Shown here: positions 10,765 through 14,493 of the stretch, piece after piece | Layout of the letters: each line of letters opens with the position of its first letter | How positions within the stretch are numbered: position 1 is the stretch's first letter | Assembly: GCA_025774115.1 (NCBI GenBank) | Contig: JALGWN010000011.1 | Span: 1 to 43,902 of the forward strand | Direction: 5' to 3' | DNA length: 43,902 nt | DNA from: a bacterium | GTDB lineage: Bacteria > Arandabacterota > Arandabacteria > Arandabacterales > Arandabacteraceae | The notes under the pieces: generated by a model | What the model saw: the letters and a program-made list of their open reading frames with translations, nothing else | What the model was told of the DNA's origin: nothing | The model's database searches: none | Program-made: the position numbers and the translations under genes

Positions 10765-10792
10765 TTCAGTGCGATCAGCAGGGTGCCGATGG
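10765..10792 (+). promoter_or_regulatory. Putative sigma28 promoter for STAS-csrA-flgM(-activator)
   Basis: TTCA-N16-GCCGATGG; the -35 match is weak. Confidence 0.4.
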
Positions 10793-10839
10793 ATAGATGA
10801 GGACATTCATGAGGGGTTTTGAGAAAGGGTGAGTGACTC

Positions 10840-11217
10840 TTGAAGATAACCACGGCAAATAGGGGGCGGACGGCGGTTGTTAAGATCTCCGGGAGGATTG
10901 ATGTTTATACGGCCAGCTCGGTCGGGGAGGCGATCCAATCGCTCATAGTGGATGGTGCATCGAACGTGATTGTCGATCTCACATCGGTCCCACGGGTGGA
11001 CAGCTCCGGTATGGGTACCCTGGTGGGTAATTCGAAGTCAATAACCTCGCTTGGGGGTGTCCTATGTCTGGTCGGTCCCTGCGAAGGTATTCGGAGGATG
11101 CTCGAGATAACCAATCTTGCCAAGTACTTCAGGATTCACACAGGAGTGGATGAGGCACTGGACGAGTTGGAGGCTTGCGCGGCCGGCCGGGCTCCGTCCT
11201 GGGCAGGAGGCAATTGA
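10840..11217 (+). CDS. STAS-domain anti-sigma factor antagonist
   Basis: SGRID, VIVDL, DSSGMG with the conserved phosphorylatable Ser. Confidence 0.88.
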
Positions 11218-11218
11218 G

Positions 11219-11479
11219 TTGCTTATTCTCACACGGAAACGCAATGAGCGGATCATGATCGGCGACAGCATTGAGGTCGTAATTGTCGACATACGAGGCG
11301 AGCAGGTACAGTTGGGCATAAACGCCCCCAAAGATGTGCCCGTGCATCGCAGAGAAGTGTATGAAGCAATAGTCAGGGAGAACGGACGTGTGCTGCCCAA
11401 GACCCCCCGTCGGGAGCGGATGAATTCCGTCAAGAAGCATAGGAATAACGGAGACCCCGGCGACAATGAGCAAGGGTAG
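11219..11479 (+). CDS. csrA: Carbon storage regulator / translational regulator CsrA
   Basis: TTG start at 11219 after [26 protein letters not shown]...[18 protein letters not shown]. Confidence 0.93.
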
Positions 11480-11696
11480 AGACATGAACGGACCAAGCCC
11501 CCTGCCTGAGGACTTGCGGGGCCGGTGCAGGCAGATTGCCCAAGAGATCCACGAACACTGTGGAGCAGTCAGGGACGACAAGATCCTGGCCGCACGAGTT
11601 CGCATCTGCAGCGGCTATTACGACTCGGAGGATGTGCTGCATGTCATAGCGGATCGCCTGCTCTCCGAGGGACACACCCGACCTCCTTCTTCCTAG
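11466..11696 (+). CDS. FlgM-like anti-sigma28 factor (short)
   Basis: [19 protein letters not shown]...IADRLL resembles the FlgM sigma-binding C-terminus; lies near fliA and overlaps csrA. Confidence 0.6.
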
Positions 11697-13172
11697 TTGA
11701 CTTCCCCAACCATAACCAATAGTATGGCCTCTGATGATTCTAATGGACTTCCGGCCGGTATCGAAATGACAAAAAAGCAGACTGCCGTCTTTAAGATCGT
11801 TCTCACAGGGCTTGATAAGGATCCCAGGGCTCTCTTGGCACGATCGCTGAGGGGTTTGGGGCATGAGATCTCCGAGAACCTTGCGCTCGAGGAAGCCTTA
11901 AAGCTGCTGGGCCGCACCTCCTACGACCTTCTAGTAGTCGACATAGACAGACTGGAAATGGACCTTTCGGACCTGCTCAAGACCTGCAAGCGCACCAGCA
12001 AGGAGGCTGCCATTGTGCTTGTGGGAAGCGGCATCGAGGTTGAGACGGCCTTCGAAGCAGCCAGGTTGGGGGCATACAAATGCCTCAGCAAACCGATAGA
12101 ACTCGAGCGCATGCTGGATGTGGTCGACAGGGCCCTTGACGGGGCGAGACTGAGGCGTGAAGCCGGATCTGTCCGCCAGATAGTCGTGGGCTATCGCCAG
12201 GCGGACCGCTTCGTTGTGGGCAAAAGCGACCTGATGCAGAAGATTGCCGAGGTCATAGAGAAGGTCTCGGCCAGCGGGGCCTCGACCGTGCTGATCCAGG
12301 GAGATAGCGGAACCGGGAAGGAACTCGTCGCCAAGGCCATTCATTTCCTGGGTGACACCATGGACAGACCCTTCATGGAGATAAATTGCTCGTCTCTGCC
12401 GGAAAACCTTCTGGAGAGTGAGCTCTTCGGCTATGAAAAAGGCGCCTTCACTGACGCAAAGAAGAGCAAACAGGGTCTCGTGGAACTCGCAGAAGGCGGA
12501 ACTCTCTTTCTTGATGAGATAGGAGAGATGCCGCTTAGTCTCCAGAGCAAGCTCCTGAGATTGATAGAGACCAAGAGATTCCGCAGGATCGGGGGTGTAA
12601 AGGACATTGAGGTTTCCACCAGGATAATGGCGGCCACCAATCGTGATCTGCGCAAGGCGAAGGACCAGGGGAAATTCCGTGATGACCTCTACTTTCGGCT
12701 TATGGTAATTCCGATTTATGTCCCAGCTTTGCGAGAGCGTAAGGAGGACATCCCAATCCTGGCGAGCTTCTTCATAGATTACTTCAACCAGGAGCTCAAC
12801 CGGTCGGTCCGGGGTTTGTCCAGGGAGGCCCAGGAGGTGACTATGGAGTATGACTGGCCGGGCAATGTGAGGGAGCTCAGAAACGTGATCGAACGGGCGA
12901 TCCTGCTGGAGAGCAAAGACCTCATATTGCCGGAGCATCTGCCCAGCGACCTCCAGAGGGGCAGGGCCGCGCACGGCTCTATTCCGGGCTCAAGTCGGGC
13001 GGAGGGTGTGCCGATCAGCCTTAAGGAGGCCGAGAGGCGGGCCGTTGCCGAGGCTCTCAGCTGGGCGGGCGGGAATAAGAGCAAAGCAGCCCGTGCGCTC
13101 GGCATTACAAGACAGACGCTCAGGCAGAAACTCAAGGCCTACGGGATGGTCAATAAGTATCCACCCGGCTAA
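11697..13172 (+). CDS. Sigma54-dependent activator (NtrC family) with atypical receiver domain
   Basis: GDSGTGKE, ESELFG, GAFTDA, LFLDEIGE, WPGNVREL, Fis-type HTH. True start may be ATG 11724 or 11766. Confidence 0.9.
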   Translation: MTSPTITNSMASDDSNGLPAGIEMTKKQTAVFKIVLTGLDKDPRALLARSLRGLGHEISENLALEEALKLLGRTSYDLLVVDIDRLEMDLSDLLKTCKRTSKEAAIVLVGSGIEVETAFEAARLGAYKCLSKPIELERMLDVVDRALDGARLRREAGSVRQIVVGYRQADRFVVGKSDLMQKIAEVIEKVSASGASTVLIQGDSGTGKELVAKAIHFLGDTMDRPFMEINCSSLPENLLESELFGYEKGAFTDAKKSKQGLVELAEGGTLFLDEIGEMPLSLQSKLLRLIETKRFRRIGGVKDIEVSTRIMAATNRDLRKAKDQGKFRDDLYFRLMVIPIYVPALRERKEDIPILASFFIDYFNQELNRSVRGLSREAQEVTMEYDWPGNVRELRNVIERAILLESKDLILPEHLPSDLQRGRAAHGSIPGSSRAEGVPISLKEAERRAVAEALSWAGGNKSKAARALGITRQTLRQKLKAYGMVNKYPPG

Positions 13173-13327
13173 TTATCTACCATTTCTTATTCCACGCTTG
13201 TTTTCAGGCTCAGTTTTGCATGTTTGAAGCTCCCTTTGGCGTTTTGAGACTTGACCAAGGGCCGATCTGGAGCCTGCTCTGGTTAAGTCGGTTGCGGCCT
13301 CTTATGCTACCAATGACGATTCCGGGG

Positions 13328-13344
13328 TGGTGAGAATTTTACCA
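13328..13344. promoter_or_regulatory. Candidate enhancer (UAS) palindrome upstream of the sigma54 promoter
   Basis: TGGTGAGAATTTTACCA inverted repeat about 190 bp upstream of the -24/-12 element. Confidence 0.35.
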
Positions 13345-13377
13345 GCTCTATTCATGTCAAGAGAAAGTTTGGAAAGG

Positions 13378-13390
13378 TAACCGATTGATA
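13378..13390. promoter_or_regulatory. IHF-binding consensus site
   Basis: TAACCGATTGATA matches TAA-N4-TTGATW, between the candidate UAS and the promoter. Confidence 0.55.
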
Positions 13391-13531
13391 CTTAAGAGGT
13401 TATGCTTGCCATTCCTTGTCAAGCCGGCCGACTCGGCTTCCAATGTGCCTGATTTCAGATCAAAAGGTTTTAAGTATTTGTGATTAAATCAGTTAAGCGG
13501 CCATTATCCGATATTACCACTTCTAATATCC

Positions 13532-13547
13532 AGGCACAGAGGTTGCA
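13532..13547 (+). promoter_or_regulatory. Sigma54 -24/-12 promoter of fliA
   Basis: AGGCACAGAGGTTGCA (GG-N10-GC), about 60 bp before the start codon, in an AT-rich intergenic region. Confidence 0.7.
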
Positions 13548-13608
13548 ATGACGTCTATCCGGTCTGCTTAGTTATGGGTCACTGGACGACAGCAAGGATG
13601 GTGAGAAG

Positions 13609-14493
13609 ATGAACAGGACATGCGTAGGTCTTTCTCCTGAGACGATTGATGAGCTGTGGGCCGCTTTTCAGGAGACAGAATCAGCGACCGTAAGGGGTAA
13701 GCTGATCCAGAACTATCTATACCTGGTGAGGTATGTGGCCGGCAAGATGGCGATGTCGGTGCCTCCGTCGGTGGAGATAGACGACCTGGTGAGTGCGGGG
13801 GTGGTTGGGTTGATGGACGCGGTCGGAAAGTTTGACCCGGGCCGCGATACCAAGTTCGAGACATACGCGGTGGCTCGAATCAGAGGTGCCATAGTGGACG
13901 ACCTGAGGTCTCTTGACTGGGTACCCCGGTCGGTCAGGCGGAAGGCGAGGATGGTGGAGGAAGCGTACTCGCGCCTGGAGAACGAACTGGGCAGGGCGGC
14001 GGATGACGAGGAGATCTCGAAGAAGCTGAATATGTCGGTCAGTGCGTTCAAGTCGATCGTTGATGAGATTATCTCAGCCGGGTTGCTGTCACTGGATGAT
14101 TTTGTCGGCAGCCAGGACGGAGAAAGGACGACCAGAATAATCGACCTGGTCTGCTCCAAAGAAGGAGGGTCGCCCTCTACCTCCCTGGAAATAGAGGAGA
14201 TGAGAGAGATTCTGGCTGAGGCGATCATGAACCTTCCGGAGAAGGAAAGAACTGTGGTGGCCCTTTACTACTATGAAGATATGACTCTCAAGGAGATTGG
14301 GAGAACCCTTGGTGTCTCCGAGTCGCGAGTCTCCCAGATTCACACCAAAGCCATGCTTAGGTTGCGGGGAAGATTGAGATTATTGCAGGATTCACTGCTC
14401 TCGGCCTTTTCCGAACGGGGCACGGCCGATCCGGATGCTCCCGCGTCGGTGGCAAACGAGATGATCGCGTGTGAACTAGTTTCAACCCACTAA
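13609..14493 (+). CDS. fliA: RNA polymerase sigma factor, FliA/WhiG (sigma28) family
   Basis: DDLVSAGVVGLMDAV, KFETYA, RIRGAIVDDLRSLDWVPRSVR, LYYYEDMTLKEIG, VSESRVSQIH. Confidence 0.93.
   Translation: MNRTCVGLSPETIDELWAAFQETESATVRGKLIQNYLYLVRYVAGKMAMSVPPSVEIDDLVSAGVVGLMDAVGKFDPGRDTKFETYAVARIRGAIVDDLRSLDWVPRSVRRKARMVEEAYSRLENELGRAADDEEISKKLNMSVSAFKSIVDEIISAGLLSLDDFVGSQDGERTTRIIDLVCSKEGGSPSTSLEIEEMREILAEAIMNLPEKERTVVALYYYEDMTLKEIGRTLGVSESRVSQIHTKAMLRLRGRLRLLQDSLLSAFSERGTADPDAPASVANEMIACELVSTH

Follow-up and report, generated by a model that had tools for sequence, protein, structure and literature searches.

Why should a set of flagellar-type regulators lie together on a stretch of DNA that carries no flagellar gene? 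The question is raised by a 43,902-nucleotide (nt) contig of a bacterium of the phylum Eisenbacteria (the window, meaning the whole stretch analyzed), in which genes for a STAS protein, a CsrA paralogue, a FlgM-like protein, a sigma-54-dependent activator, and a sigma-28 factor of the FliA/WhiG family follow one another (Table 1). These five genes and their control sites are called the cassette here. An earlier reading of the sequence alone had taken them for a self-contained sigma-28 feedback loop in an organism without a flagellum. The assembly from which the window comes comprises 2.96 Mb in 353 contigs (completeness, 94%; contamination, 6%); the window, its contig C97, was examined against a comparison set of 18 genomes of the phylum, which are incomplete assemblies. 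Synteny was compared at 10 loci, one from each of 10 genomes in two families (f1 and f2), two genomes of a third family of the same class (f3) were compared separately, and the motifs around the STAS and sigma genes were compared at 11 orthologous loci. The answer that we consider probable is that the cassette consists of duplicated late-gene regulators of the flagellum (sigma-28, FlgM, and CsrA), which moved into a chemosensory and cyclic di-GMP (c-di-GMP)-type cluster and became self-activating and independent of the flagellum.

Two regulator sets in one genome

Searches of the whole genome identified a complete flagellar cluster on another contig, C328 (38 kb), with all genes on one strand. 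The cluster contains basal body and export genes (FliL, FliM, FliN, FliO, FliP, FliR, FlhB, FlhA, and FlhF), rod, ring, and hook-associated genes (FlgF, FlgG, FlgA, FlgH, FlgI, FlgJ, FlgN, FlgK, and FlgL), and genes for a second sigma of 261 amino acids (aa), FapA, an HDOD protein, FliW, a second CsrA, flagellin, FliS, and FliD. The G+C content of this contig is 58.2%, against 57.5 ± 1.1% for contigs longer than 5 kb. Because the flagellin promoter on it is nearly identical to the one in G001, a genome of the same genus, the contig was assigned to this organism. The supposed lack of a flagellum was thereby refuted. The sequence-only reading had also held that a flagellar gene set elsewhere would reduce the cassette to one half of an ordinary split regulon, and this did not follow, because the flagellar cluster has its own sigma, FliW-CsrA pair, and FlgM-like gene and does not need the cassette regulators. 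In the window itself, no flagellar gene was found among the 38 open reading frames (ORFs) scanned, and whole-genome searches for FlhA, flagellin, FliP, and FliW gave no match on the window contig, so the claim that 44 kb hold no flagellar structural or export gene stood. The rpoN gene, on which the earlier reading had also depended, was present on contig C145.

The FlgM-like gene of the flagellar cluster is a 104-aa ORF located after fliD (C328:5129-5443), which showed no Pfam match. Its C terminus matched the cassette FlgM-like family with 96% probability and 64% identity over 22 aa. In addition, a profile of the cassette FlgM-like orthologues gave a second, weaker FlgM-like match in eight flagellated genomes, always on the contig of the flagellin gene and 2.5 to 3 kb away from it. 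A search of the whole genome with the Pfam FlgM model (PF04316) returned nothing at an E value of ≤1, despite the two FlgM-like genes; therefore, the model is blind to this lineage.

The sigma of the flagellar cluster was 44% identical to the cassette sigma. A tree built from 48 sigmas, unrooted and with some long branches, placed the 11 cassette sigmas in one clade and 8 flagellar sigmas in another, each with a support of 100/99, and the f3 sigmas joined the cassette clade (support, 93/83). The end branches were 0.03 to 0.16 for the cassette sigmas and 0.12 to 1.44 for the flagellar ones. The cassette CsrA is likewise a second copy besides the flagellar FliW-CsrA pair. These comparisons indicate that the genome has two sigma-28/FlgM/CsrA sets, one flagellar with FliW and one in the cassette, and that the sets are paralogous. 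Separately, a C-terminal tail of approximately 35 aa ending in ELVSTH (window positions 14380 to 14490) was kept in the cassette sigma of all 11 orthologues and was not present in the flagellar sigma.

Retention of the cassette in relatives

The gene order STAS, CsrA, FlgM-like, activator, sigma, and receiver and histidine kinase genes (receiver-histidine kinase followed by receiver) was identical at all 10 loci, which come from 10 genomes of two families. An eleventh locus examined, a weak match in G004, had no cassette. In the window, the CsrA gene starts with TTG at position 11219, one base past the STAS stop codon, the 76-aa FlgM-like ORF overlaps CsrA by 14 nt, and the activator gene begins at 11697, directly past the stop of the 76-aa ORF. 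The abutting and overlapping arrangement that had been described ahead of fliA was thus reproduced in both order and spacing. The f3 form (two genomes) comprises genes for PilZ, CheA, and chemoreceptor proteins, the FlgM-like ORF, the activator, a 53%-identical sigma, a receiver-histidine kinase, and a PP2C phosphatase; the ATPase, STAS, and CsrA genes were not present at the f3 loci.

Seven of the 18 genomes lacked FlhA, flagellin, FliP, and FliW: G003, G006, G007, G008, G009, G011, and G012, with completeness values of 87, 93, 91, 98, 73, 86, and 57%, respectively. The cassette sigma was found in six of these (64 to 78% identity), all but G011. Four genomes (G006 to G009) have the whole cassette with both promoters, one FlgM-like gene, and no FliW, and the cassette CsrA is the sole CsrA in each of them. 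In G004 and G015, both incomplete assemblies, flagellar genes were present and the cassette sigma was not found. As for the non-flagellar role that had been proposed for this sigma-28, its retention in six of seven marker-less genomes speaks in favor, although the organism studied here has a flagellum.

A remote FlgM relative

The 76-aa ORF between csrA and the activator gene showed no direct match in Pfam or NCBIfam scans. PF04316 gave no match to it above the cutoff and matched 3 of the 11 orthologues weakly (best E value, 0.054), and a profile search of the family against solved structures gave a single chance-level match (E value, 1.1). The ORF is conserved in 11 genomes, and the profile built from these orthologues retrieved 122 proteins at an E value of ≤0.001 among 1.84 billion. 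Of the 121 retrieved proteins scanned with Pfam (one protein of 1,997 aa was omitted), 80 matched PF04316 at an E value of ≤0.001, with a best value of 1.4e-16. These results support the earlier assignment and indicate that the ORF is a remote relative of FlgM, with homology traced via intermediate sequences.

Co-folding of the FlgM-like protein with the cassette sigma gave a score of 0.61, compared with 0.00 for the best of three controls; this mark was attained by 58 of 80 solved complexes and by 2 of 110 mismatched pairs. At least 74% of the contacts agreed between runs, and the predicted local distance difference test (pLDDT) value of the partner was at least 70. Residues 39 to 66 of the FlgM-like protein, in its conserved C-terminal part, were placed on residues 198 to 233 of the sigma (region 4), and residues 13 to 36, in the N-terminal part, on residues 33 to 66 (region 2). 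The FlgM-FliA contact that the earlier reading had presupposed is therefore supported as a prediction, in the sense of a likeness and not of a proof of binding. Release of this FlgM by flagellar export is unlikely, since the protein is kept in four genomes without FlhA and FliP.

Promoter motifs and other candidate control sites

A motif of the form TT(C/T)AG-N15-G(C/T)CGA(T/A) precedes the STAS gene at 11 of 11 loci, and the sequence of the 15-nt spacer varies. Compared with the promoter type TAAA-N15-GCCGATAA, the -10 part and the spacing were kept at every locus, and the -35 part is TTCAG. The strict cassette pattern has 17 matches in this genome, of which the cassette match is the only non-coding one; all coding and non-coding counts given here depend on a crude codon-usage gene caller. 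For TTCAG-N15-GCCGATA, the cassette copy was the sole one in G002, G006, and G008. At the flagellin promoters of 9 of the 11 flagellated genomes, the -35 element is a different one, CTAAAGT (within CTAAAGT-N-(N)CGATA), and the two sets therefore represent two promoter classes. The canonical pattern TAAA-N14-16-GCCGATA was enriched in non-coding DNA (6 of 15 matches; contigs C61, C156, C222, C234, and C349), and these motifs probably point to the genes controlled by the flagellar sigma.

Upstream of the sigma gene, a sigma-54-type pattern, GGCA(C/T)-N5-(T/C)TGCA, was found at a distance of approximately 60 nt at 11 of 11 loci. Genome-wide, this pattern was matched 22 times, and 12 of these matches fall within the non-coding 11%. 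Two palindromes lie upstream of this motif; both are TGGYAA-N5-YTACCA-like, the first is located right at the activator stop codon, and a like palindrome lies 3' of the activator gene in both f3 loci. An upstream activating sequence, an IHF site, and a -24/-12 element had been described in this region before fliA; the palindromes and the -24/-12 motif were conserved at 11 of 11 loci, but no consistent IHF consensus was seen by eye. A possible sigma-28 motif near positions 13485 to 13514, also before the sigma gene, was rejected for its 18-nt spacer. The retention of the conserved motifs across loci while the spacers drift is more than would be expected by chance. The footprints at all 11 loci support the proposed wiring, in which a sigma-28 promoter leads to the activator and, via a sigma-54 promoter, to the sigma gene, and they bear out the sigma-28-type motif ahead of STAS.

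The ribosome-binding site of the sigma gene was also conserved: AAGGATGG was kept in 8 and AAGGA in 10 of the 11 orthologues. The sequence AAGGATG precedes 7 of 2,372 crudely called genes. The window sequence, CAAGGATGG, resembles the consensus of a CsrA site.

Table 1. Coordinates of the cassette, its control sites, and the genes around it
Feature	Position	Strand	Evidence and conservation
PilZ-domain protein, first gene of the cluster	4125..4505	+	PF07238, E 3e-11; 6/10 relatives' loci, wherever the contig extends
CheA-type kinase (Hpt, HATPase_c, and CheW-like domains)	4548..7151	+	7/10 loci, wherever the contig extends
Methyl-accepting chemotaxis-type receptor (MCP)	7189..8967	+	PF00015, E 1.2e-34; 8/10 loci, wherever the contig extends
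GspE/PilB/MshE-type secretion ATPase with N-terminal MshEN (c-di-GMP-binding type)	8964..10745	+	PF00437, E 2.3e-136; PF05157, E 6e-22; 10/10 loci
Sigma-28-type promoter motif, TTCAG-N15-GCCGATGG	10765..10792	+	48 nt upstream of STAS
STAS anti-sigma-factor antagonist	10840..11217	+	PF01740, E 1.9e-20; TIGR00377, 75.5 bits vs 53.45
CsrA paralogue, 86 aa, C-terminal tail	11219..11479	+	NF002469, 85.6 bits vs 73
FlgM-like anti-sigma-28 candidate, 76 aa	11466..11696	+	Orthologue profile search; co-fold
Sigma-54-dependent activator, degenerate receiver, HTH_8	11697..13172	+	Sigma54_activat PF00158, 219 bits; PF02954
Upstream palindrome 1, CGGCTA-N5-CTACCA, candidate activator site	13166..13182	+	Same position in 11/11 loci, by eye
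Upstream palindrome 2, TGGTGA-N5-TTACCA	13328..13344	+	Seen by eye in relatives' intergenic regions
Sigma-54 -24/-12 motif, AGGCACAGAGGTTGCA (AGGCAC-N5-TTGCA)	13532..13547	+	61 nt upstream of the sigma gene
Candidate CsrA site at the sigma-gene ribosome-binding site, CAAGGATGG	13593..13601	+	Sequence
FliA/WhiG-family sigma-28 paralogue	13609..14493	+	TIGR02479 FliA_WhiG, 273.1 bits vs 189.6; PF04542, PF04539, PF04545 (regions 2, 3, 4)
Receiver-histidine kinase hybrid	14512..15732	+	Domain scan; 10/10 loci
Receiver-domain protein, start codon uncertain	15599..16534	+	Domain scan; 10/10 loci
Conserved structured RNA, 128 nt	16890..17017	+	Sigma-70-like promoter TTGAC-N17-TAnnnT and strong terminator, within 16850-17024
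Secreted HExxH protein (HEIGH motif), C-terminal sorting-type domain	17037..17993	+	Read by eye, no Pfam match; 7 relatives' loci
Small lipoprotein-like protein	18223..18654	+	No Pfam match; 7 relatives' loci
PDZ-GAF-SpoIIE (PP2C) phosphatase, candidate STAS phosphatase	19199..21772	-	PF07228, E 1.2e-52; 5/10 loci where the contig extends; also f3

Proposed circuit and its alternatives

From these footprints and domain assignments, we infer which sigma would read which promoter, every protein contact, the binding of CsrA, and the output. The cassette sigma-28 would read TTCAG-N15-GCCGAT and transcribe the genes for STAS, CsrA, the FlgM-like protein, and the activator. The activator would bind the two palindromes 3' of its own gene and act on the sigma-54 promoter of the sigma-28 gene, thereby closing a positive loop; the same promoter would probably also drive the two receiver genes behind the sigma gene. 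The FlgM-like protein would clamp regions 2 and 4 of the sigma as a negative arm, and CsrA would probably block the CAAGGAUGG ribosome-binding site of the sigma mRNA as a second one. Release of the sigma would occur through sequestration of FlgM by STAS, whose state would depend on the PP2C phosphatase and on a kinase from another locus, and input would come from the PilZ, CheA, MCP, and MshEN proteins. Such a loop may be bistable.

The serine motif of the STAS protein is DSSG in 10 of 11 orthologues and DSTG in the eleventh; as in SpoIIAA and HsbA, this serine would be the phosphorylation site. The PP2C phosphatase is a plausible partner of STAS. In the activator, the acidic pair of the receiver (window positions 11697 to 12200) was lost in the f1 and f2 orthologues (IVLTGLDKD), and the f3 orthologue (L080:7435-7800) retains VVDDD. 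The families that lost the pair are also those that gained STAS, CsrA, and the ATPase.

Several observations weigh against an independent circuit of this kind. The region 4.2 helices of the cassette and flagellar sigmas are nearly identical; therefore, either sigma could read the STAS promoter in flagellated genomes. The strict cassette motif had no other non-coding match in this genome, so the search for a regulon gave no target beyond the cassette's own operon. No RsbW-type kinase (PF13581) was found inside the cassette, and the three such kinases in the genome each lie beside another STAS gene. The sigma-54 contact loop of the activator is GAFTDA, and the canonical loop is GAFTGA. The f3 loci keep the sigma, activator, and FlgM-like genes without STAS or CsrA, and neither the sigma-28 nor the sigma-54 motif pattern gave a match there. 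Because a FlgM-sigma-28 complex has already been solved, the co-folding result may mirror likeness to that structure. Finally, the absence of flagellar genes was judged from incomplete assemblies. Two further searches for targets are to be read beside these points: GCCGATA(A/G/T) was not enriched in non-coding DNA (45 of 452 matches), and a search of the genome for the palindrome pattern gave no convincing second target.

Among the alternatives, the one that survives best accepts the loop and places the action of STAS elsewhere. The STAS protein would serve an RsbW-type kinase module or the neighboring ATPase, and FlgM would be released otherwise, e.g., by proteolysis or a c-di-GMP-dependent step. 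The kinase-STAS pairs elsewhere in the genome and the lack of a kinase in the cassette fit this proposal, as do the f3 loci, which retain FlgM-like, activator, sigma, and PP2C genes without STAS, and the PilZ and MshEN domains of c-di-GMP type in the cluster. However, STAS is the first gene of the tightly packed operon of FlgM at 10 of 10 loci, its serine motif is kept in nearly all orthologues, and a FlgM-binding STAS protein is described in a Pseudomonas study (PMC5085249). We regard this alternative as possible but clearly short of probable.

It is unlikely, in our judgment, that the cassette belongs to the flagellar and chemotaxis regulon as a remote branch that tunes motility genes jointly with the flagellar set, with the copies in aflagellate genomes as leftovers. 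Of the 28 loci examined outside the phylum, 7 have an activator gene directly 5' of a FliA homologue, and this adjacency alone is therefore not new. Together with it, the flagellated genome, the CheA and MCP genes adjoining the cassette, and the near-identical helices of the two sigmas would suit such a branch. Yet the flagellar cluster is already supplied with its own sigma, FlgM-like protein, and FliW-CsrA pair, the shorter end branches show that the cassette sigma evolves more slowly than the flagellar one, and an intact cassette with full synteny and promoters in four genomes without the four flagellar markers fits poorly with decay. Least probable by some way is that the motif before STAS is no sigma-28 promoter and that read-through from the CheA, MCP, and ATPase genes replaces the feedback loop, for although the -35 part TTCAG departs from the TAAA of flagellin promoters and the ATPase-STAS gap is merely 94 nt, the GCCGAT -10 element stands at a fixed 15-nt distance across a variable spacer at all 11 loci and the strict motif is unique genome-wide in the three genomes named above.

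We thus prefer the duplicated, self-activating, flagellum-independent cassette. A wider version of this proposal is advanced only tentatively, namely that the whole checkpoint module was rewired into an export-independent, self-activating switch with a chemosensory and c-di-GMP trigger, which governs a non-motility program and has outlived the flagellum in several Eisenbacteria lineages. The program would perhaps consist of the secreted protease and the surface lipoprotein encoded in the adjacent genes, behind a new RNA of riboswitch-like or Csr type.

Neighboring genes and candidate outputs

The cassette lies within a conserved cluster in which the PilZ, CheA, MCP, and ATPase genes precede it and the PP2C gene follows. 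The secretion ATPase was additionally matched by NF053729 (49.6 bits; cutoff, 38), and no pilus platform or pilin gene adjoins it.

Downstream of the receiver genes, the structured RNA ends approximately 20 nt before the gene for the HExxH protein. The RNA was present as a single copy in 13 to 14 of the 18 genomes; it was not found in f3, which likewise lacks the cassette CsrA. It showed no Rfam match at gathering scores or at E values up to 10 and may represent a new riboswitch-like leader or, alternatively, a decoy RNA of the Csr type. The genes for the HExxH protein and the lipoprotein-like protein sit between the receiver gene and the PP2C gene. These two proteins are possible outputs of the cluster.

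The remaining genes of the window, outside the cluster, are housekeeping genes. Also in the window are genes for a histidine kinase and another sigma-54 activator of the receiver type (positions 34200 to 37192, minus strand) and a GAF-GGDEF diguanylate cyclase (positions 39742 to 40809, minus strand).

Relation to known systems

The cassette resembles the flagellar sigma-28 (FliA)/FlgM checkpoint in pairing a FliA/WhiG-family sigma with a small FlgM homologue, whose C terminus is predicted to lie on region 4 of the sigma. In contrast to that checkpoint, it stands outside the flagellar cluster and persists where flagellar genes are lacking, and its FlgM has 76 aa, compared with 104 aa for the copy in the flagellar cluster. 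In Bacillus subtilis, FliW, CsrA, and flagellin form a regulatory switch. As in that system, a CsrA gene is tied here to sigma-28 regulation, and the flagellar cluster of this genome has a FliW-CsrA pair. The cassette CsrA differs in having no FliW partner, in occurring in aflagellate relatives without FliW, and in its proposed target, which is the sigma mRNA and not flagellin.

The closest parallel is the split between WhiG1 and WhiG2. In Actinomycetota, WhiG comprises a flagellum-linked clade and a clade controlled by RsiG and c-di-GMP with non-flagellar roles, according to two reports (10.64898/2026.01.14.699351, PMC8325347). Both cases have two sigma-28 clades, of which one is flagellar and the other has its own anti-sigma factor and a c-di-GMP context. 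The present system differs in belonging to another phylum, in having a FlgM-like anti-sigma factor, and in adding CsrA, STAS, and a sigma-54 loop. The RsiG motif E-x3-S-x2-R-x3-Q-x3-D was not seen by eye in the 76-aa protein.

Two further systems share features with the cassette. In the HptB-HsbR-HsbA-FlgM partner switch of Pseudomonas aeruginosa, the STAS protein HsbA binds FlgM (PMC5085249). Both systems have a STAS gene beside flgM, neighboring genes for chemotaxis and PilZ proteins, and a phosphatase of the PP2C type. Unlike that switch, the cassette has no HsbR-like fused kinase, its phosphatase has a PDZ-GAF-SpoIIE architecture, the target sigma is a non-flagellar paralogue, and STAS-FlgM binding is here only proposed. 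In Myxococcus xanthus, the Che3 chemosensory system is paired with the NtrC-like sigma-54 activator CrdA (PMC3147164). As in Che3, the genes for CheA and an MCP accompany one for a sigma-54 activator and not a CheY-to-motor output; the cassette activator differs in its degenerate receiver and in its apparent target, a sigma-28 gene.

What is new is the combination, in which a trio of sigma-28, FlgM, and CsrA paralogues and a STAS protein are joined in an apparent sigma-28/sigma-54 loop and kept after the loss of the flagellum. A literature search, supplementary files aside, found no description of this combination. If the proposed circuit is true, a large machine's regulators were duplicated and put to new use as a general decision circuit. 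Next to the actinobacterial WhiG2, this would also be a second independent instance of a sigma-28 factor leaving the flagellum, here with FlgM and CsrA paralogues alongside. Because the parts are all small and are confined to a single stretch of 10 kb, a laboratory host could be used to rebuild the loop and test it, an advantage in a phylum that has no cultured member.

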